Part shown: piece by piece, positions 64 to 55,718 of the stretch
Position numbering within the stretch: position 1 is the stretch's first letter
Layout: the number at the start of each line of letters is the position of its first letter
From: Candidatus Magasanikbacteria bacterium CG1_02_32_51
GTDB taxonomy: Bacteria; Patescibacteriota; Patescibacteriia; Magasanikbacterales; UBA922
Assembly: GCA_001871435.1 (NCBI GenBank)
Contig: MNVC01000019.1
Location: forward strand, 218 to 64,217
Length of the DNA: 64,000 nt
Reading direction: 5' to 3'
Notes under the pieces: generated by a model
The model's input: only the letters and a program-made list of their open reading frames with translations
The model's database searches: none
Told to the model about the DNA's origin: nothing
Translations under genes and position numbers: made by a program

Positions 64-177
64 AATGAACTACCTCGCAGCATCGTGCCCAAGGCTGATC
101 AGTCCTCTGGCTGAAGCTGACGAGGTATTAAACCTTGTCCGCCTTGCCGTGCACGCCTTGGGCTGTGGGCGGATTAA
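64..177. repeat. GC-rich structured repeat element, copy A (in the + sense upstream of ligT-like gene); 114 bp, inverted relative to copy B at 7580-7693
   Basis: Read directly. gaactacctcgcagcatcgtgcccaaggctgatcagtcctctggctgaagctgacgaggtattaaaccttgtccgccttgccgtgcacgccttgggctgtgggcggattaa is the reverse complement of 7580-7693 with 2-3 mismatches. About 60% GC in a 28% GC background. Internal helices are cctcgcagc/gctgacgagg, gcccaagg/ccttgggc and tccgcc/ggcgga. Confidence 0.85.
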
Positions 178-203
178 ACTTTGTATCTGTGTAATAAACT
201 TTT

Positions 204-767
204 ATGAAACAACGTATATTTATAGCTTTTAGAATAAAAAATGAAGAAATAATAGAAGAATTAAAAGAAATACAAACAAAATTGAAGAATCTAAACAAAA
301 AGGCTCATATCATTTGGACAAAATCAAAAGCTTTTCATATTACTTTGGAATTTTTAGGTGAGATAAATGAAGTACAATTGTCCAAAGTAAAAGAGATTGT
401 CTTGATTATTGCCAACAAATATCATGATTTTAAATTTTGGTTAAATAATTTGAGTGGATTTCCAAGTCAAACTCAGTCCAAAATAATTACCATGCATGTA
501 GAAGGGGAGAAAAGACTGGCTACTTCTCTACAAGAGGATTTAGTATTTGCTCTCAAAGAAAGTGGTTTGATAAAAGAGATCCAGCCATGGATAGCACATA
601 TTACTTTGGGACGAAATAGTGGAGAACACCAAATGCTTGGTTATGATACTATAAGTTTTGAAAAAAAAGTTTTTGAAATTAAAACAATTGAAATTATTAG
701 AAGTGATTCAAAATTTGGTGGGTCTAAGTATAGTATTTTAGAAAGTTATGACTTAAATGGTAAATAA
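204..767 (+). CDS. 2H phosphoesterase family protein (RNA 2',3'-cyclic phosphodiesterase ThpR/LigT-like)
   Basis: Two H-x-T-x motifs (HITLEFLG and HITLGR) at the spacing typical of the 2H/LigT family; 187 aa. Confidence 0.65.
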   Translation: MKQRIFIAFRIKNEEIIEELKEIQTKLKNLNKKAHIIWTKSKAFHITLEFLGEINEVQLSKVKEIVLIIANKYHDFKFWLNNLSGFPSQTQSKIITMHVEGEKRLATSLQEDLVFALKESGLIKEIQPWIAHITLGRNSGEHQMLGYDTISFEKKVFEIKTIEIIRSDSKFGGSKYSILESYDLNGK

Positions 768-1536
768 TTATATGTTTGACAGTGTCAAAATTTTGGGTAT
801 AAAAATAAGTAAACTAAACAAAAAAGAAAGTCTAGAATTGGTGTCTAACTTTTTAGTTTTGCAAGGTCAATATAAAATCTTTACCCCTAATCCAGAAATG
901 TTGGTAGATGCTAGAAAAGATAGTTATTTTCGTAAAGTATTGAACAATTCTGATCTCAATATTTGTGATGGACATGGTATTAAATTTCTTTCCAAAGAAA
1001 AAATTACTGTAATTTCTGGAGTTGATTTTATGCTAGATATTTGTAAAATAGCTGAACAAGAAAAGTATTCAATTTTTTTACTAGGTTCTGGCTCAGATAT
1101 TGTTTTAGAAAAATTACAAAAAAAATTACAAAATAGTTTTCCAAAATTAAAAATTGTTGGTTCTAATCCCGGTTTGAAAATTGATCTAAAATTAGAAGAA
1201 GACAAAGTTTCTTTAGATTTTGATAAGTCCAAAAATGAAGAAATTATAAAAAACATAAATGAGAGTAATGCCAGTATTTTATTTGTAGCTTTTGGACACA
1301 ACAAACAGGAAAAGTGGATTTATGAAAATTTGCAAAATTTACCAAAAGTAAAATTAGCTATGGGTGTTGGTGGTTCATTTGATTTTATTTCTGGTAAAAT
1401 AAAACGTGCTCCCAAATTTTTGCAAAGATTTGGATTAGAATGGTTTTATAGACTTATTATTCAGCCAAAAAGATTTATGAGAATTTTGAAAGCCACAATA
1501 ATTTTTACTTATTTTAAAATAACCAACAATAAATAA
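757..1536 (+). CDS. WecB/TagA/CpsF family glycosyltransferase (N-acetylmannosaminyltransferase-like)
   Basis: KIFTPNPEMLV, CDGHG and a C-terminal FGLEWFYRLIIQPKR motif typical of the WecG/TagA family. It carries an internal insertion of about 40 aa. Confidence 0.7.
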   Translation: MVNNYMFDSVKILGIKISKLNKKESLELVSNFLVLQGQYKIFTPNPEMLVDARKDSYFRKVLNNSDLNICDGHGIKFLSKEKITVISGVDFMLDICKIAEQEKYSIFLLGSGSDIVLEKLQKKLQNSFPKLKIVGSNPGLKIDLKLEEDKVSLDFDKSKNEEIIKNINESNASILFVAFGHNKQEKWIYENLQNLPKVKLAMGVGGSFDFISGKIKRAPKFLQRFGLEWFYRLIIQPKRFMRILKATIIFTYFKITNNK

Positions 1537-1543
1537 TAAAAAT

Positions 1544-2305
1544 ATGCTAGAAAAATCAGTCTTAAAACACTTAACCAAGCTAAAATTAAAAAAAAATCGT
1601 AAAGAAGAATTAGAATTCGTAGTAGAAGGATTAAAAGGAGTAAATGATGCTCTTACATCTGCAATGGAAGTAATACTTGTAGTAATAGACGGCAAACTAC
1701 GTGATGAAAAAGATTTTGTAGATATAATCAAAAAAGCAGAAAATAAAGGTGTTGCTGTTACTTATTGTGGTAGACAAGATATTGATAAAATAAAAGACAC
1801 TGAAACTTTTTCAGGTATTTTGGCTGTAATAGCTCAAAGAAATAGCACTTTAGATAACTTTGATGATGGTCCAATAATTTGCTTGGAGGATATCAATGAC
1901 CCTGGAAACTTGGGAACTATTATTCGTACAGCTGATTGGTTTGGCTTTAAGAATATTTTGTTGTCGTCTGATACAGTGGATGTCTATAATCCCAAAACTG
2001 TTCGTAGTACTATGGGTTCTGTTTTTCATTTAAACTTTTTTAAGACTGCTAATTTGTTTCAAACACTAGAAAAAATAAAAAAAGAGTATGAATACAAATT
2101 GTATGCATTAGATCTAAATGGTGAAGATTATAAGAAAATTAAATCAGAGAATAAGGTTGTTTATATTTTTGGTAGTGAATCACATGGTATTAGTCCAGAT
2201 ATTGAAAAAATTGTGGATAAGAGTTATACTATCCCAGGTCAAGGAAAAGCTGAATCTCTAAATGTAGCTGTTTCGGCGGCTATAATAATGTCACATCTAA
2301 GTTAA
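1544..2305 (+). CDS. TrmH/SpoU family RNA 2'-O-methyltransferase
   Basis: SPOUT C-terminal motifs (IFGSESHGIS and ESLNVAVSAAIIM) plus an N-terminal substrate-binding domain. Confidence 0.75.
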   Translation: MLEKSVLKHLTKLKLKKNRKEELEFVVEGLKGVNDALTSAMEVILVVIDGKLRDEKDFVDIIKKAENKGVAVTYCGRQDIDKIKDTETFSGILAVIAQRNSTLDNFDDGPIICLEDINDPGNLGTIIRTADWFGFKNILLSSDTVDVYNPKTVRSTMGSVFHLNFFKTANLFQTLEKIKKEYEYKLYALDLNGEDYKKIKSENKVVYIFGSESHGISPDIEKIVDKSYTIPGQGKAESLNVAVSAAIIMSHLS

Positions 2306-2309
2306 TTTT

Positions 2310-3767
2310 ATGATTAAATCTCGTTTTGCTCCAAGTCCAACTGGCTATCTTCATATTGGTAGTTTGCGTACAGCTCTTTTTGCTTATCTTTTTGCTAAGA
2401 AAAAAAATGGTCAGTTTTTGCTTCGTATTGAAGATACTGATAGAGAGCGCTTTGTGGAAGGATCTCTAAAAAATATTTTAGATTCTTTTGCTTGGGTAAA
2501 TATTGTTATTGATGAGGGTGTAATTTTAGAAAATGATAATATTATTCAAAAAGGTGAAAATGGACCGTATATTCAATCAGAAAGATTAGATATTTATCAA
2601 AAGTATATTAAAGAATTATTAGAAAAAAATAATGCTTATTATTGTTTTTGCAGTAAAGAAAGATTGGATGAAATGCGGGCTATACAAGAAGCAAATAAAC
2701 ATGCCACAGGTTATGATGGATATTGTCGTAATTTGAGTAAAGACGAAGTAGCACAAAAATTAGCAAAAAATGAAAAATTTGTTATTAGAATGAAAATGCC
2801 AGATAATGGTTTGACTGTGCTGGAAGATATGATAAGAGGAAAAGTTGAGTTTAAAAATGAACTTTTTGATGATCAAGTACTTATCAAGTCTGATGGGTTT
2901 CCAACATATCACTTTGCTGTAGTAGTAGATGATCATTTGATGGGAATTACCCATGTTATTCGAGCAGAGGAGTGGTTACCTAGTACTCCAAAGCATGTAG
3001 TGCTTTATCACATGTTTGGTTGGAAAGTACCTCAATTTGCGCACTTATCTTTGTTGATAAATGAAAAAAAACAAAAATTATCCAAAAGAAATGGTGATGT
3101 TTCTGTAGTTGATTATGTCAAAAAAGGTTATTTGCCAGAAGCTTTTGTAAATTTTATTGCCTTTTTAGGTTGGAATCCAGGAGATGATAGAGAATTTTTT
3201 AGTATGTCTGAACTAGAAAAAGAATTTGATTTTGCCAAAGTTGGTAAGGCTCCGGCAGTATTCAATTTAGAAAAATTAAATTGGTACAACAAACAATACA
3301 TCATGAAAATGTCTGCTGTTGAACTATCAGAAAGATGTAGAAGTTTTTATGCAGAAAAAAATGTTGATATTAAAGACTTTGATTTGACTAGAGTTGTAGC
3401 ATTAGAGCAGGGGAGGGCTAATACACTTTTAGAGATTGTTGAAAATACTAGTTTTATTTTTTCTGAAAATATTTACGAAGCAGATTTGTTGGTTTGGAAA
3501 AAATCAGATAAAATAAAAACCAAAGAAAATTTACAATTAACTTTGAATTTTCTGCAAGATTTTTCAGGTGTTTGGAGCAGGGAAGAGTTGGAAGTAGGTG
3601 TATTGGCTTGGATAAAGGATAAGGGTTTGGGTAATGGTGATGTTTTATGGCCGATGCGGGTTGCTTTGTCTGGTTTGAATAATTCTCCAGGACCTTTAGA
3701 AATTGCTGGTGTGCTTGGTAAAGAAAAAACTTTAGCAAGAATAAAAATAGCTGTAGATAAAATTTAG
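2310..3767 (+). CDS. gltX: glutamyl-tRNA synthetase
   Basis: Class I motifs: PSPTGYLHIGSLRTALF (HIGH region) and KLSKR (KMSKS); 485 aa. Confidence 0.9.
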   Translation: MIKSRFAPSPTGYLHIGSLRTALFAYLFAKKKNGQFLLRIEDTDRERFVEGSLKNILDSFAWVNIVIDEGVILENDNIIQKGENGPYIQSERLDIYQKYIKELLEKNNAYYCFCSKERLDEMRAIQEANKHATGYDGYCRNLSKDEVAQKLAKNEKFVIRMKMPDNGLTVLEDMIRGKVEFKNELFDDQVLIKSDGFPTYHFAVVVDDHLMGITHVIRAEEWLPSTPKHVVLYHMFGWKVPQFAHLSLLINEKKQKLSKRNGDVSVVDYVKKGYLPEAFVNFIAFLGWNPGDDREFFSMSELEKEFDFAKVGKAPAVFNLEKLNWYNKQYIMKMSAVELSERCRSFYAEKNVDIKDFDLTRVVALEQGRANTLLEIVENTSFIFSENIYEADLLVWKKSDKIKTKENLQLTLNFLQDFSGVWSREELEVGVLAWIKDKGLGNGDVLWPMRVALSGLNNSPGPLEIAGVLGKEKTLARIKIAVDKI

Positions 3768-3793
3768 AACTTTTTTGAAAAACATGCTATAAT
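3765..3793 (+). promoter_or_regulatory. extended -10 promoter (TGcTATAAT) only 9 nt before the ATG of the M23 peptidase gene; possible leaderless or near-leaderless mRNA
   Basis: TG at 3785-3786, TATAAT at 3788-3793, ATG at 3803. Confidence 0.35.
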
Positions 3794-3802
3794 AGTTTTA
3801 CT

Positions 3803-5062
3803 ATGAAAAAGCGTGTTTTTTTATTTATTTTCATTTTAATAACGGTTTCTTTGACTAACCCTTTTTTTGTTTTTACAACCACTGATACAGAACTGGCTAG
3901 TAACAAAAATGAAATAGACGATTTGAATAATCAAATAGCCCAAAAGAAAAACAAAATAGCCGAATTGGAAAAAACTATTGCTGATTATAAAGCTAAAATA
4001 GAAACAACTAGATTGGAATCGAAATCTTTATCAAATCAACTTTCTATTTTGGATAACTATATTATACAGGTTGATTTGGATATTCAGGCTACACAAGAAA
4101 AAATAGATGCTACAGGTTTAGAAATTAAAGGATTGGATTTATCTATAGCAGACAAAGAAACTACAATTGCTAAACAACAAAGATTATTATCAGGTCTTAT
4201 CAGGACTATTTATTATGAAAATAATAAAAAATATATTGAGGTAATGGCTGCTTATGCTAATTTTTCTGATTTTTATAATCGTGTTCATTATGTTCAAAGT
4301 TTAGAAGAAAATCTTGGTAAGAGTGCCAAAACTATCAGAATAGCTAAAGAAGAATTACAAACCAAAAAACAACAAAGGGAAGAACAACAGACAAGTTATC
4401 AAAATTTGAAAGTTACACTAGATAATAAGAAAAAAGATTTACAAGAACAAATCAAATTTAAAGAAGATCTTTTGTTACAAACTAAGTCTTCTGAGTCTAA
4501 ATACAATACTTTAGTACAGAATTTAAGAAATCAATATAGTCAAATCGAAAATGAAATTACTAGTTTTGAAAGTCAAGTAAGAAAGAAACTAGAAGAACAG
4601 AACAAAATTACTGAAGGTGGTAATCCACAACAAAATGGTCTCTTACCATTGTCTTGGCCGACTCAAAGTCGTTATATTACTGCTTATTTTCATGATGAAA
4701 ATTATCCATATAGAAATATCTTTGAGCATCCTGCTATTGATATTAGAGCTGCTCATGGAACCGCTATACGAGCTACGGCTTCTGGTTATATTGCTCGTGC
4801 TAGAATTTGTACTACTGCTAGTTGTTATGCTTATGTGATGATTATTCATTCTGATGGATTTTCTACTGTATATGGACATTTGAGTAATATTGTGGTGTCT
4901 GCTGATCAATTTGTAACCCGTGGAGATATAATTGGTTATTCTGGAGCCACACCAGGCACTGTTGGTGCTGGTCCATTTACTACAGGGCCTCATTTGCATT
5001 TTGAAGTTCGTAAAGATGGTATTCCTGTAAATGCATTAAACTATTTAGAAAAAGATTATTAA
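3803..5062 (+). CDS. secreted coiled-coil M23 family metallopeptidase (EnvC/NlpD-like)
   Basis: N-terminal signal/TM, a long coiled-coil region, and a C-terminal M23 domain (HxxxD-like region and HLHFEV). Confidence 0.75.
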   Translation: MKKRVFLFIFILITVSLTNPFFVFTTTDTELASNKNEIDDLNNQIAQKKNKIAELEKTIADYKAKIETTRLESKSLSNQLSILDNYIIQVDLDIQATQEKIDATGLEIKGLDLSIADKETTIAKQQRLLSGLIRTIYYENNKKYIEVMAAYANFSDFYNRVHYVQSLEENLGKSAKTIRIAKEELQTKKQQREEQQTSYQNLKVTLDNKKKDLQEQIKFKEDLLLQTKSSESKYNTLVQNLRNQYSQIENEITSFESQVRKKLEEQNKITEGGNPQQNGLLPLSWPTQSRYITAYFHDENYPYRNIFEHPAIDIRAAHGTAIRATASGYIARARICTTASCYAYVMIIHSDGFSTVYGHLSNIVVSADQFVTRGDIIGYSGATPGTVGAGPFTTGPHLHFEVRKDGIPVNALNYLEKDY

Positions 5063-5065
5063 TCT

Positions 5066-5623
5066 ATGAAATTTGATAAAAATAATTTGTTTTTTAGTGA
5101 TAATATTATTTTTTTTGATACAGAATTTACTAATATTGATAGTGAAATTGGTGAAATAATGTCTATTGGTCTTGTCAAACCAAATGGTGAAGAATTATAT
5201 CTAGAATTAGTTTATGATAATAAAACTGTTCATCCTTGGGTTACAGAAAATGTAATCCCTTTTTTGTTAGGTAACAAAATCAGTAAAGAAAAAGCTATAA
5301 AAAAAATTTGGGATTTCATTGGTAGGGGAGAAGATAAGCCTTTTCTTATGGCTTATGTCAATCAATTTGATAGTATTTATTGGTATAGACTTTTTGCTGA
5401 TCCAAAAGATCATCCAGTATTTTGGATACCAATTGATTTTGCTTCTATTTTGTTTGCTTTTGGTTTCAATCCAGAGATAATGAGGGTAGGGGACTTCTTT
5501 GATTGGTTAGATATAGATTTGCAAAAATATAAAAAACACAATGCTTTGGAAGATGCTAAAATGTTAAAAGAAGTTTATGATAAATTTAAAGAAAAAGTAT
5601 TAGTGTCGCACAATGTAGAGTAG
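5066..5623 (+). CDS. DEDDh-family 3'-5' exonuclease (oligoribonuclease/RNase T-like)
   Basis: Exo I FFDTEFT, Exo II AYVNQFD, Exo III HNALEDAKML (H-x4-D). Confidence 0.6.
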   Translation: MKFDKNNLFFSDNIIFFDTEFTNIDSEIGEIMSIGLVKPNGEELYLELVYDNKTVHPWVTENVIPFLLGNKISKEKAIKKIWDFIGRGEDKPFLMAYVNQFDSIYWYRLFADPKDHPVFWIPIDFASILFAFGFNPEIMRVGDFFDWLDIDLQKYKKHNALEDAKMLKEVYDKFKEKVLVSHNVE

Positions 5624-5643
5624 TATTTTTACCAAATTGAAAA

Positions 5644-5680
5644 AAAGAGTAAATATCTTTTCAATATTTACTCTTTTTAA
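5644..5680 (+). terminator. intrinsic terminator after the exonuclease gene
   Basis: Perfect inverted repeat aagagtaaatat / atatttactctt with an 8-nt loop, followed by a T run. Confidence 0.55.
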
Positions 5681-5693
5681 ATTAACATTTATA

Positions 5694-5770
5694 ATTTAGG
5701 AATTTAGAAATTTTCAATTTTAATTTGTCCGCCTAGGGTGGAAACAATTTTCAATTTAAAAATTTCAAAA
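5694..5770. repeat. degenerate member of the modular repeat family (AT-rich leader ttaggaatttagaaattttcaattttaat plus GC piece gtccgcctagggtggaaac)
   Basis: Shares ttaggaatttagRaatttt with 55483-55505 and ttttcaattttaat with 48-63; gtccgcc also occurs inside the 114-bp element. Confidence 0.5.
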
Positions 5771-6438
5771 TTAATTTAAATTCATAAAAATACTTACCAA
5801 TTGTTGATGTCAAAAGTGGGTATAGAACAAAGTAGGATACTCACTGCGAAAAGTTGTAGAAAAAGTCGATACTCTATACCTTTAGTTTTGAACCCACTTT
5901 TTGTGGTGTCGCAAAATATAGAGAATAGTGGCTAAACCTAGCCAAAAAGTAGGTAAGTGAAGTGGGTGTTACCTAAGCTATAAATAACCATTAAAGCTAG
6001 CTAAGATTATTATAAATAATTAGAACAATTATATATTAATATTTTTTTGAACAATTTATTAGTGGGTATATACTGTATTGTAAAAAGAATAAAGTGATGT
6101 AAATTAGATACTGAAACTAATCTTCATTTTAGTCAGAATAAGCCTTAGTGTCGCATAAGATACATTGTGCGACATTGTATCAAATAAGGTTTTTGATACT
6201 CTTTTCTATTACTCCCCTATTTTTTTCTTTTATTTTTATAAAAAAATAAACATCCAAAAAATGTTTATTTAAAAAAACAATAAATAAAAAAGTAGCAATG
6301 GTGGTTAGACAGAATTTGACGTTTAGGTTTTTTAATCCTGTCTAAACACCTCGGCGTCCCCCCCCTCTTTTGAAGGATCAAACGTACCATTCATTATCTA
6401 TTTAACTACTTTAAAAAGATCATGCCAATTATGTGTGG

Positions 6439-7485
6439 CTATTTCCAATATATTCTATCTGGGTATCTCAAATCTATGTAATTCAAAAAAATATTATTAT
6501 CTATTTTTTCTTTATATAAAGAGTTTAATTTATTTATTTGGGCAGTCACTTCCCTATCAAAACGTGTCTTGATATAAAATCCTTTGTAAGTTTTTATTGT
6601 TAGATCTTGTTTGTTATCTTCAAAGATAAAATATTTTAAAGGAATTTTTTCATTATTATCAAGTTGTTTGAACCAATTTATTAATATAATTACTTCTGCT
6701 TTATCCAAAACATTCTCATTTATATTTACCTCTTGTATATTATTTTTATCATAAATAATGGGATAATTGCCTAAATCTTTTTTTATAGTAGCAATATCTG
6801 GTTCATGCAATTTACCTACTACAATTGTGGTAGTAATACTTTCTCCAGTAATAGTGGTTGTAACTACTTTTTGAGTAATATCTTTCCACTCATAATCACT
6901 TATCTTTCGCATTATTTCTACTATCTTTCCATCTAGATCTACATAGCTATATTCTAAACCATTGTCATAGATAATAGTAGAAATTTTTTCTTGAATAATT
7001 ATAGACAATTTGTTGGGAAAACTTTTTTTGACAATAATTTTTTCAATTGGGTATCTTTCTTTTAAGACGTCTTTTATTTCATTTACATTGGAAAAAACAT
7101 AACTATTTTCTCTTATTAAACCTAATTTTTTATAATTGAGAATACCATTTATTGTTTCCAATAAATCTATTTTTTTTATTCTTTGTAATCCTTCTATTTG
7201 TATATCATTTATATTAAAGAAAGGATGAAAAACAAAGACTGAAAAAATAGTTAGAATGCTTATAATTATAATAAAAAGATTTAAATATATTAGTTTTTTA
7301 CTAGCCTTTTCATGAATAAAAGGGTTCTCTATTTCTCTACCTTGCCAAGCAAAATCGCGTCTAGTTTTTTTGGAGTTAAAAAAATAATTAAAAATTTTTT
7401 TTGTACTTTTTACTTTATTATTGAACTTTCTTTGTAATTTGTGATGGTTTATTATTTTTTTGATTGGCACAGGCTTTTTACACAA
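6439..7485 (-). CDS. ftsQ: cell division protein FtsQ/DivIB-like (POTRA domain); non-ATG (TTG) start as called
   Basis: Basic cytoplasmic N-terminus, a single TM, then a POTRA-like INDIQIEGLQRIKKIDLLETIN segment. There is no Met in the first 100 aa, so an alternative start codon is likely. Confidence 0.5.
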   Translation of the reverse strand: MCKKPVPIKKIINHHKLQRKFNNKVKSTKKIFNYFFNSKKTRRDFAWQGREIENPFIHEKASKKLIYLNLFIIIISILTIFSVFVFHPFFNINDIQIEGLQRIKKIDLLETINGILNYKKLGLIRENSYVFSNVNEIKDVLKERYPIEKIIVKKSFPNKLSIIIQEKISTIIYDNGLEYSYVDLDGKIVEIMRKISDYEWKDITQKVVTTTITGESITTTIVVGKLHEPDIATIKKDLGNYPIIYDKNNIQEVNINENVLDKAEVIILINWFKQLDNNEKIPLKYFIFEDNKQDLTIKTYKGFYIKTRFDREVTAQINKLNSLYKEKIDNNIFLNYIDLRYPDRIYWK

Positions 7486-7494
7486 TCCTGAAGC

Positions 7495-7530
7495 CGGCGA
7501 AGCACGGCGTAGGATCTTTCTTAAAGTATA
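7495..7530 (-). promoter_or_regulatory. start-codon-abutting GC hairpin motif (member 1 of 5), upstream of ftsQ
   Basis: In mRNA sense: gaucc-uacgccgugcuucgccggcuuc-aggau, immediately 5' of the start. Near-identical to 14703-14738. Confidence 0.5.
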
Positions 7531-7579
7531 TTTTTTAGTAAATTTTTGCTATGTTATAAATAATTATTTTGTTTGGCAG

Positions 7580-7693
7580 ATTAATCCGCCCACAGCCCAA
7601 GGCGTGCACGGCAAGGCGGACAAGGTTTAATTCCTCGTCAGCTTCAGCCAGAGGACTGATCAGCCTTGGGCACGATGCTGCTAGGTAGTTCAT
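7580..7693. repeat. GC-rich structured repeat element, copy B (inverted; in the sense orientation of, and upstream of, ftsQ)
   Basis: Reverse complement of 64-177 at about 98% identity. Confidence 0.85.
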
Positions 7694-7786
7694 TTATAAA
7701 TGTTTTTAAGCAGGAAACCTGTCTGCCGACAGGCAAGGATCCCTCATTCAATTTCTTCGTACCTCAGAAATTTCTTTCAGGATAAA

Positions 7787-14702: not shown

Positions 14703-14738
14703 CATCCTGAGCCGGCGAAGCACGGCGTAGGATCTTTC
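14703..14738 (-). promoter_or_regulatory. start-codon-abutting GC hairpin motif (member 2), upstream of serS
   Basis: In mRNA sense: gauccu-acgccgugcuucgccggcuc-aggaug, 12 nt before the ATG. The 10-mer tcatcctgag recurs inverted at 14846-14855, overlapping the stop codon of the next gene. Confidence 0.5.
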
Positions 14739-14846
14739 TTAAATATATAAATGTTTTTAATTAATAAATCTGGAATTGATTCTAAAAAATGTTTTTGAAT
14801 AAATAAAAGTAATCAGGGTCTACAGATCCTTCATCGTATTCTCGAC

Positions 14847-42054: not shown

Positions 42055-42132
42055 GGATACGAAATACGAAAGGTACAAAATTACGAAAGTATTCCGCAAT
42101 TCGTATGTTCGTAAATTTCGTATTTCGTATCC
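42055..42132. repeat. nested palindromic array of a 7-mer (atacgaa / ttcgtat) in the atpA-atpG spacer
   Basis: ggatacgaaatacgaaa ... tttcgtatttcgtatcc form a perfect 17-bp inverted repeat, with inner ttacgaa / ttcgtat copies. Confidence 0.6.
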
Positions 42133-55483: not shown

Positions 55484-55566
55484 AAAATTAGGAATTTAGG
55501 AATTTTAAAAAGCTATCTTTAAATACTTTAAAAATGAACTACCTCGCAGCAAGCTGACGAGGTATC
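55483..55566. repeat. AT-rich leader repeat plus the 30-nt mini version of the 114-bp element (gaactacctcgcagca|agctgacgaggtat) in the def-fmt spacer
   Basis: ttaggaatttaggaatttt matches 5694-5712. The mini element equals positions 1-16 plus about 48-63 of the 114-bp element, forming the hairpin uaccucg/cgaggua. Confidence 0.7.
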
Positions 55567-55718
55567 CAGCGGAAGATATTTATTATATTGAGAAACTCAA
55601 CGTTTCTCAAACTCTTCCTTATATGGAAACCTCGAGGCAAGCCTCTAGGAATACAATGATTAAATCATTCAAAAATTGTTTTAAAATTCCTAAATTTAAA
55701 ATTCAAAATTATATATCT

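Follow-up and report, generated by a model that had tools for sequence, protein, structure and literature searches.

Near-identical inverted repeats in a Magasanikbacteria contig as probable gene-less derivatives of an IS200-group insertion sequence

The repeats and their surroundings

The 64,000-nucleotide stretch of contig MNVC01000019.1 from Candidatus Magasanikbacteria bacterium CG1_02_32_51 that was analysed here (the window) contains three short, GC-rich intergenic repeats. Two of these, copies 1 and 2, form a near-identical inverted pair flanked by the genes for a LigT-like protein (copy 1) and an FtsQ-type POTRA protein (copy 2), and a third, related copy lies between def and fmt. All three are very probably miniature derivatives of an insertion sequence (IS) of the IS200 group.

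A repeat search of the window returned inverted arms at 64-180 and 7578-7694 (117 nt, 97% complementary), and a per-base comparison of 64-178 with 7580-7694 found them to be reverse complements (AATGAAC...GGATTAA) with unrelated flanks and two mismatches, at position 76 (C vs A) and position 126 (T vs A). This agrees with an earlier reading made from the letters alone (the sequence-only reading), which had described a near-identical inverted pair, had named LigT-like and ftsQ genes as its neighbours, and had listed helices that are all present in the folds. Other parts of that description required correction. The GC content is 55% for copies 1 and 2 and 30.8% for the window, rather than 60% in a 28% genome; the shared AT-rich leader aatgaactacct, which had been placed outside the repeat, belongs to the repeat itself; and two copies only had been counted, the third, at 55533-55658, having been overlooked. 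A profile model (HMM) of the ends recovers three copies only in the 64-kb window, and the 19-nt start of the repeat, AATGAACTACCTCGCAGCA, has three real matches at up to three mismatches, compared with none in 100 window shuffles.

Mis-assembly, which the sequence-only reading had raised as a possible source of the pair, is excluded. Both copies are present in the same arrangement in GCA_002322575.1 (contig DCOZ01000010.1) and in ERZ909571 (the ENA assembly of SRR1534154), and the pair is therefore not an assembly artefact. Elements of this family do, nevertheless, break assemblies: a Logan contig breaks inside the element, at the gtgcac palindrome, one related locus (L362; L numbers denote related loci throughout) begins inside it, and many family matches lie at contig ends.

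Anatomy of copies 1 and 2

On the top strand, meaning the orientation of the transposase gene tnpA, each copy is laid out as TTAAT, a small CCGCC/GGCGG hairpin, TTTAAT, a hairpin CCTCG..CGAGG, and TAGTTCATT. This, the transposon's own orientation, is opposite to that assumed by the sequence-only reading, and the supposed leader aatgaactacct is the reverse complement of AGGTAGTTCATT, the conserved right terminus of IS200-group insertion sequences.

Copy 1 (64..172; top strand is the minus strand) is a 109-nt miniature element with a single hairpin and two expanded loops, its boundary having been set from the empty site of copy 3. It matches copy 2 (7586..7694; top strand is the plus strand), a 109-nt miniature element between the FemAB and FtsQ genes, at all but two positions. 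The right-end terminus at 64..72 (minus strand; AATGAACTA on the plus strand, TAGTTCATT on the top strand) is, by homology, a putative transposon-encoded cleavage motif; GGTAGTTCATT ends every full-length IS of the family, following directly on the tnpA stop codon and right-end (RE) hairpin, and the T following TTCAT is present in 44 of 44 elements tabulated. Adjoining the terminus is an imperfect palindrome of the transposase type (73..125, minus strand), with arms at 73-81 (CCTCGCAGC) and 116-125 (GCTGACGAGG, one base of which is bulged), the loop of which is enlarged by 34 nt (82-115) where other members have CTTG.

A left-end guide-like segment (126..137, minus strand; CAAGGTTTAATA on the top strand) lies 5' of the hairpin foot and matches the conserved left-end (LE) core TTARTWCC. 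Its TTAA/TTAG variant co-varies with the flanking TTAAT/CTAAT. The leader of the left end is a small GC hairpin, TCCGCC...GGCGG(A) (138..172, minus strand), with a loop, enlarged by ~21-24 nt, that holds the palindrome cgtgcacg; the unexpanded form, CCGCCnnnGGCGG, is found in L326, L255, L085, L313 and L113, and a homologous expanded form in L113 (2857-2900). Outside the mobile unit lies the transposon-adjacent target motif, ATTAA (TTAAT on the top strand) at 173..177 (minus strand) for copy 1 and TTAAT at 7581..7585 (plus strand) for copy 2; this motif abuts all three copies, and the empty site of copy 3 retains it.

The loop expansions at 82-115 and 144-167 are complementary to each other (GCCCAAGGC / GCCTTGGGC; gcccaagg / ccttgggc). 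GC-rich loop insertions are recurrent, being seen in the window at these two positions, in other Magasanikbacteria copies (L113 2857-2985, L273), and in L085. Both the window copies and L085 have, independently, a copy of the small CCGCC/GGCGG-type hairpin within the loop of the right-end hairpin. An interpretation of the element as a small open reading frame (ORF), of 55 and 52 codons, was rejected, as copy 3 has an in-frame TGA after seven codons and family variants break the frame.

Copy 3 and the insertion rule

Copy 3 (55533..55658, minus strand), between def and fmt, is a complete two-hairpin miniature of 126 nt, with a right-end hairpin CCTCGCAGCAAGCTGACGAGG and a left-end hairpin CCTCGAGGCAAGCCTCTAGG; its main hairpin has a 4-nt loop where copies 1 and 2 hold the 34-nt insert. 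The target motif beside it, ATTAA at 55659..55663 on the minus strand (TTAAT on the top strand), is also found in the empty allele. That allele comes from L376 and L377, two assemblies of one near-identical strain, in which the def-fmt flanks are 100% identical to those of the window and the 126 nt at 55533-55658 are absent. In the filled allele the insert begins directly 3' of TTTAAT, ends in TTCATT, and shows zero target duplication, and such a junction, 3' of TTAAT and without duplication, is a signature of the IS200/IS605 family. Copy 3 is a strain-level insertion polymorphism, and constitutes direct evidence that single-strand transposons have recently been active in this Candidatus Magasanikbacteria population.

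The same TTAAT abuts copies 1 and 2, and the relationship between guide and target extends across the family. A TTAA guide accompanies TTAAT in a ratio of 17:2, and a TTAG guide accompanies CTAAT in a ratio of 13:1, plus one ATAAT, although these counts come from related sequences and so are not independent events. In IS608, cleavage sites pair with guide sequences located 5' of each hairpin foot (PMC3201880), and the co-variation fits this rule. At the right end, as in the fold of L370, TCA(TT) of the terminus has its complement in (A)TGA, which lies 5' of the foot. The left-end hairpin itself is preserved through compensatory substitutions: pair 3 is AT in 21, CG in seven and TA in two, and pair 4 is AT in 24, TA in seven and CG in one. 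Terminal inverted repeats are absent from all three copies, the termini CCGCC.../CATTG... and ...TTCATT not being mutual inverted repeats, and subterminal hairpins number two in copy 3.

Transposase-bearing relatives and the miniature series

Scanning of public genomes with a 14-nt pattern gave 240 loci, mostly chance matches, and filtering left 16 genuine family members, hosted by Magasanikbacteria, KSB1, Omnitrophota, Planctomycetia, Desulfobacterota, Bacteroidota and Erysipelotrichaceae. Their consensus, in the orientation of the sequence-only reading, is AATGAACTA-CCTCGCAGCAAGCTACGAGG-TATC-(variable)-CGCAGCAAGCTGCGGGG-AATTAA, frequently with a small GC hairpin and GATTAA after it. Several matches at contig ends consist of the ‘leader plus first helix’ followed by the reverse-complemented C-terminus of a small protein. 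Metagenomes were scanned with the reverse-complement pattern, and 12 loci with a long upstream ORF were inspected. Eleven of the 12 encode an IS200-type TnpA of ~148-162 codons, with a stop 13-15 nt (24 at one locus) before GATACCTCGTCAGCT(C/T)TGCTGCGAGGTAGTTCATT, and the left end TCTAATCTCTnnGGGGTTAGTTCCCCG-hairpin precedes the ORF wherever there is sufficient upstream sequence (11 compact units). The two TnpA ORFs scanned match the Pfam family Y1_Tnp (PF01797), with E=3.4e-36 and 2.2e-34.

Elements of ~650 bp that bear tnpA between the same two ends occur in many phyla. On plasmid pREB3 of Acaryochloris marina, a gene annotated as ‘IS200/IS605 family transposase’ is laid out in the same way and has the same right end, ...GCAGCGGGGTAGTTCATT, with hairpin changes that are compensatory. 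The transposase family comprises 4516 proteins at E<=1e-30, most copies lying on contigs of 650-1000 bp, and close TnpA homologues are found in other bacteria of the candidate phyla radiation (CPR), namely Microgenomates and Jorgensenbacteria. One IS, present with identical TnpA in several different flanking contexts (L370-L375), has at both ends exactly the hairpin of the window, CCTCGTCAGCTTGCTGCGAGG. The window copies and the tnpA loci (L249-L360, L369, L370-375) have in common the right end ...CCTCG..CGAGGTAGTTCATT as well as the left-end core TTARTWCC with its hairpin; the gene-less window elements thus share both end sequences with autonomous IS200/IS605 members. The sequence-only reading had noted that no transposase was associated with the repeats, which holds for the 64-kb window but not for the family, as full-length members encode a Y1 transposase.

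Two further observations concern this subgroup. The IS of L370-L375 is preceded by TT(C/T)AT, not TTAAT, suggesting a subgroup with another target motif. In addition, L104 (148-2280, from an Erysipelotrichaceae metagenome-assembled genome (MAG)) encodes a 571-residue protein with no Pfam match that scores 34 bits against TIGR01766 (cut-off 32) and E=3e-9 against guided_TnpB; this protein, matching RuvC models of TnpB/Cas12f, is followed by ~400 nt of non-coding sequence that closes in the same right-end hairpin and terminus. Judged by these matches, the L104 unit looks like an unusually large TnpB-type cargo on an end of this IS200 subgroup.

The spacing between left core and right end sorts the non-coding matches into two-hairpin miniatures (55-72 nt) and single-hairpin miniatures (16-19 nt). 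The former are found in KSB1, Omnitrophota, Bacteroidota, Desulfobacterota, Planctomycetia and Magasanikbacteria, and the latter in several unrelated hosts (L015, L119, L254, L255, L264, L314, L326 and L358). L326, which reads TTAAT-CCGCCCAAGGCGG-ACAAGGTTTAAT-TCCTCGTAGCTTGCTGCGAGG-TAGTTCATT, equals copies 1 and 2 minus both loop expansions.

As short GC-rich extragenic palindromes, the repeats could also be of the type of repetitive extragenic palindromic (REP) sequences and REPINs, kept by a single-copy domesticated RAYT (TnpA-REP) rather than derived from an IS. A GTAG-like tag (GGTAG) adjoins the hairpin foot, some JGI records call related transposases ‘REP element-mobilizing transposase RayT’, and other small GC hairpins, GATCCT..AGGAT, recur in the window. 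However, the related tnpA genes are bracketed by both ends in compact units of ~650 bp, and TnpA is present in multiple copies: the identical protein recurs in several contexts, and many of the contigs measure 650-1000 bp. This is how an insertion sequence behaves, not a single domesticated gene. Moreover, within an element the two hairpins are repeated directly, whereas those of REPINs are inverted, and insertion takes place 3' of a fixed pentanucleotide, as in IS200/IS605. An origin in REP or REPIN sequences is, on this evidence, very improbable.

Orthologous sites and gene order

In L367, a relative with 78% identical FtsQ, the FemAB-FtsQ spacer is 50 nt long and has no copy 2; ligT and copy 1 are also missing, and the absence of ligT places copy 1 at a synteny break. 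In L364 and L365 (FtsQ 81% identical) the spacer is filled by a different inverted-repeat element. Since relatives are without them at orthologous sites, copies 1 and 2 are recent insertions rather than conserved leaders, and the ‘recent duplication or mobility’ that the sequence-only reading had offered as one alternative was the correct one.

This region has several further features. The different small element (GGATACGAAATACGAAA...TTTCGTATTTCGTATCC) is found at 42055-42132 in the window, at 4761-4870 in L364 and at 8861-8970 in L365, and in the 81%-identical relative it occupies the site that copy 2 has in the window, so that, from the sequences compared, the FemAB-FtsQ spacer seems especially prone to receive small mobile elements. 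An exact 34-nt GC-rich repeat forming the hairpin GATCCTACGCCGTGCTTCGCCGGC..AGGAT lies at 7492-7525 and 14710-14743, just upstream of ftsQ and serS, and the same hairpin makes up the whole FemAB-FtsQ spacer in L367. Hairpins resembling GATCCT...AGGATC also serve as the left-end leader of some family members (L248, L253, L261, L280), and the GATCCTACGCCGTGCTTCGCCGGC..AGGAT hairpin could be either a REP-like unit in its own right or a module belonging to the present elements. A block at 7516-7778, within which copy 2 lies, is bounded by a direct ATCCT repeat and has a further GC hairpin, CCTGTCGGCAGACAGG, at ~7722-7737; ~150 nt of it lie beyond the 109-nt element. At the other end of the segment, GCA_002322575.1 (L361) is 100% identical to the window from position 42 on and unrelated to it over 1-41, which places the breakpoint of a rearrangement or indel ~21 nt from copy 1, on its outer side.

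Inverted arms of ~115 bp that are 98% identical and 7.4 kb apart could, as the sequence-only reading had proposed, mediate inversion of the segment between them; as recombination substrates they would form a DNA switch that flips the ligT-to-exonuclease segment. A change in the sign of the GC skew and a point of gene convergence lie between the arms. The inversion is physically possible, but three assemblies show a single orientation, and the gene order from FemAB to wecG, identical in all three, is collinear and in the same orientation in L367, which has neither copy. No recombinase lies nearby, and transposition already explains the repeats; a switch of this kind is extremely improbable. The skew itself passes from +0.24 to -0.11 at ~5000-7000, where the plus- and minus-strand gene blocks converge, and the interval 5624-6438 has no ORF longer than 44 codons, yet mostly aligns to relatives at ~75-80% identity; it may be terminus-like, or an unannotated small gene or RNA. 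When GC skew was compared with orientation, the three copies were not uniformly oriented to a single inferred fork direction.

Orientation, folding and a possible RNA leader

The sequence-only reading had placed both structured elements in 5' leaders, and a cis-regulatory RNA of this kind, riboswitch-like and co-transcribed with the gene that follows, would have its near-identity kept by selection on the fold. As RNA, the folds do beat shuffles (z = -2.9 and -3.4), all three window copies lie upstream of and co-directed with the next gene, and some hairpin variants are G-U-compatible on this strand (L082, L097). The remaining evidence goes the other way. The Rfam search covered the whole window and 12 related loci at the gathering score, and the copies at E<=10; only a tRNA, a group I intron in L113 and noise were returned, with no match for the element at either threshold. 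The intron lies at 3709-4111 of L113 (Magasanikbacteria contig JBAYUH010000009.1; RF00028, 59 bits). Inspection by eye, with Rfam as the only formal test, showed no hammerhead or other self-cleaving core, and a scan for promoters and terminators gave counts at the shuffle level, with no signal at the copies.

Of 43 non-redundant miniatures, 27 had an ORF no more than 400 nt downstream; the nearest such ORF ran in the same direction in 16 and in the opposite one in 11, so that across the family there is no orientation preference toward the downstream gene, an outcome that the sequence-only reading itself had named as one that would speak against its leaders. The genes downstream of the window copies (ligT, ftsQ, fmt) are unrelated, and the element is absent at the orthologous sites of relatives and, for copy 3, even from a near-identical strain. 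The opposite strand closes the main hairpin better (a U-G pair replaces the C-A mismatch, and the loop is CUUG), and the ends equal those of tnpA-bearing elements, so that the helices are read as transposase-type hairpins and the ‘leader’ as the right terminus. That the copies lie next to gene starts is a result of insertion at TTAAT sites in AT-rich intergenic DNA, and not of any leader function. A structured RNA leader is very improbable, and the elements are ordinary selfish DNA.

Interpretation and proposed mechanism

We consider it very probable that the three repeats are non-autonomous derivatives, resembling palindrome-associated transposable elements (PATEs) or miniature inverted-repeat transposable elements (MITEs), of an insertion sequence that belongs to the IS200 group within the IS200/IS605 family; PATE is the nearest term in print. 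The ends shared with tnpA elements, the graded series of miniatures and the empty site of copy 3 together lead to this view, and it is supported by the absence of copies 1 and 2 in relatives, the guide-target co-variation, the compensatory hairpin changes and the contig breaks at the element. They are not autonomous members, there being no Y1 (HUH) TnpA between the ends of the window elements; the 109-126 nt units have no ORF inside.

In the mechanism proposed, the GC-rich helices would be subterminal hairpins that are bound, on single-stranded DNA, by the Y1 (HUH) transposase TnpA. With no tnpA found in the window, mobilisation would take place in trans, TnpA from elsewhere in the genome or population excising and pasting the elements as single strands (‘peel and paste’), with TTAA of the target recognised through base pairing to the TTAA guide that lies on the 5' side of the hairpin foot. 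For copies 1 and 2, a two-hairpin ancestor may have lost its interior by deletion between the similar, directly repeated hairpins, after which the single-hairpin form would have gained its loop expansions and been copied once more. On the top strand, the empty alleles would be expected to read ...TTAAT joined to AAAATTG... for copy 1, and ...TTAAT joined to TATAAATG... for copy 2.

A number of results weigh against this account. Copies 1 and 2 have one transposase-type hairpin only, plus the small left-end leader hairpin, where two would be expected, and are without the TTGATA guide that usually precedes the right-end hairpin. Within the 64-kb window, tblastn with two TnpA probes found no tnpA (best E=0.065); nor was there a tblastn match to a TnpB-like protein. 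An exact empty allele of copy 1 or 2 was not found, indels in the relatives with 78-81% FtsQ identity exceeding the element, and in L367 it is 263 nt (7516-7778) that are absent, compared with an element of 109 nt. The window copies also point the same way relative to the next gene, which with n=3 is not significant. Finally, the IS608 transpososome uses two hairpins (PMC3201880), and the present account leaves the copying of the single-hairpin form unexplained. The duplicated form is mildly unusual in having one fused hairpin, with large loop expansions that are complementary to each other, and in having nevertheless reached a second locus. Its one hairpin is bordered by the left guide and target on one side and by the right terminus on the other. 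Should this form still be transposed, and not have spread through another kind of duplication, a Y1 transposase would be able to excise and insert elements in which one hairpin serves both ends; we consider this unlikely. If true, single-hairpin transposition would involve a geometry of the substrate that has not been described for IS608-type transpososomes, and the recurrent single-hairpin miniatures would mark a distinct minimal class of single-strand transposon, of ~60 nt.

These elements have wider significance. In AT-rich CPR genomes, intergenic repeats that are GC-rich, near-identical and well folded can mimic novel structured RNAs, where here they are transposon ends. The target TTAAT or CTAAT, together with the terminus GGTAGTTCATT, provides a signature for a widespread IS200 subgroup, and the single-hairpin derivatives raise the question of minimal TnpA substrates. 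A literature search for the terminal sequences gave only chance primer matches.

Comparison with known systems

Classical bacterial MITEs, such as Correia, RUP and ERIC, are likewise small, non-coding, intergenic, multi-copy and IS-derived, but the window elements are without terminal inverted repeats or target-site duplication. REP and REPIN sequences, with their RAYT enzymes (PMC3116915, PMC3333891), are similar in being GC-rich extragenic hairpins handled by Y1 HUH enzymes, whereas in the present family the enzyme is encoded within an IS that is itself mobile and multi-copy, the paired hairpins have a direct and not an inverted arrangement, and left and right termini are defined.

PATEs, gene-less IS200/IS605 derivatives named in Haloquadratum (PMC3119063), are closer, and gene-less PATE-like copies with TAM/TEM motifs are also known among Geobacillus elements (PMC10055086). 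As with the window elements, PATEs are short and gene-less, have IS200/IS605 left and right ends and TAM/TEM-type boundary motifs, and are presumed to be mobilised in trans. Published examples, however, mostly derive from the IS1341/TnpB type and often carry omega-RNA sequence, whereas the window elements come from a tnpA-only IS and, at 109-126 nt, are too short for an omega-RNA scaffold like the ~400-nt tail of L104.

From the IS200 group of the IS200/IS605 family itself (PMC3201880; PMC5027513), the window copies differ in carrying no gene, in the one fused hairpin of copies 1 and 2 where two are expected, with loops enlarged by ~24 and 34 nt, and in their host, a CPR bacterium with a small genome. 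In common with it, they have subterminal imperfect palindromes and no terminal inverted repeats (copy 3 with two such hairpins, copies 1 and 2 with only one of the transposase type), they are inserted 3' of a short fixed motif, TTAAT in this case, without duplicating the target, a guide complementary to the cleavage motif lies 5' of the hairpin foot, and full-length relatives with the exact same ends encode a Y1_Tnp transposase.

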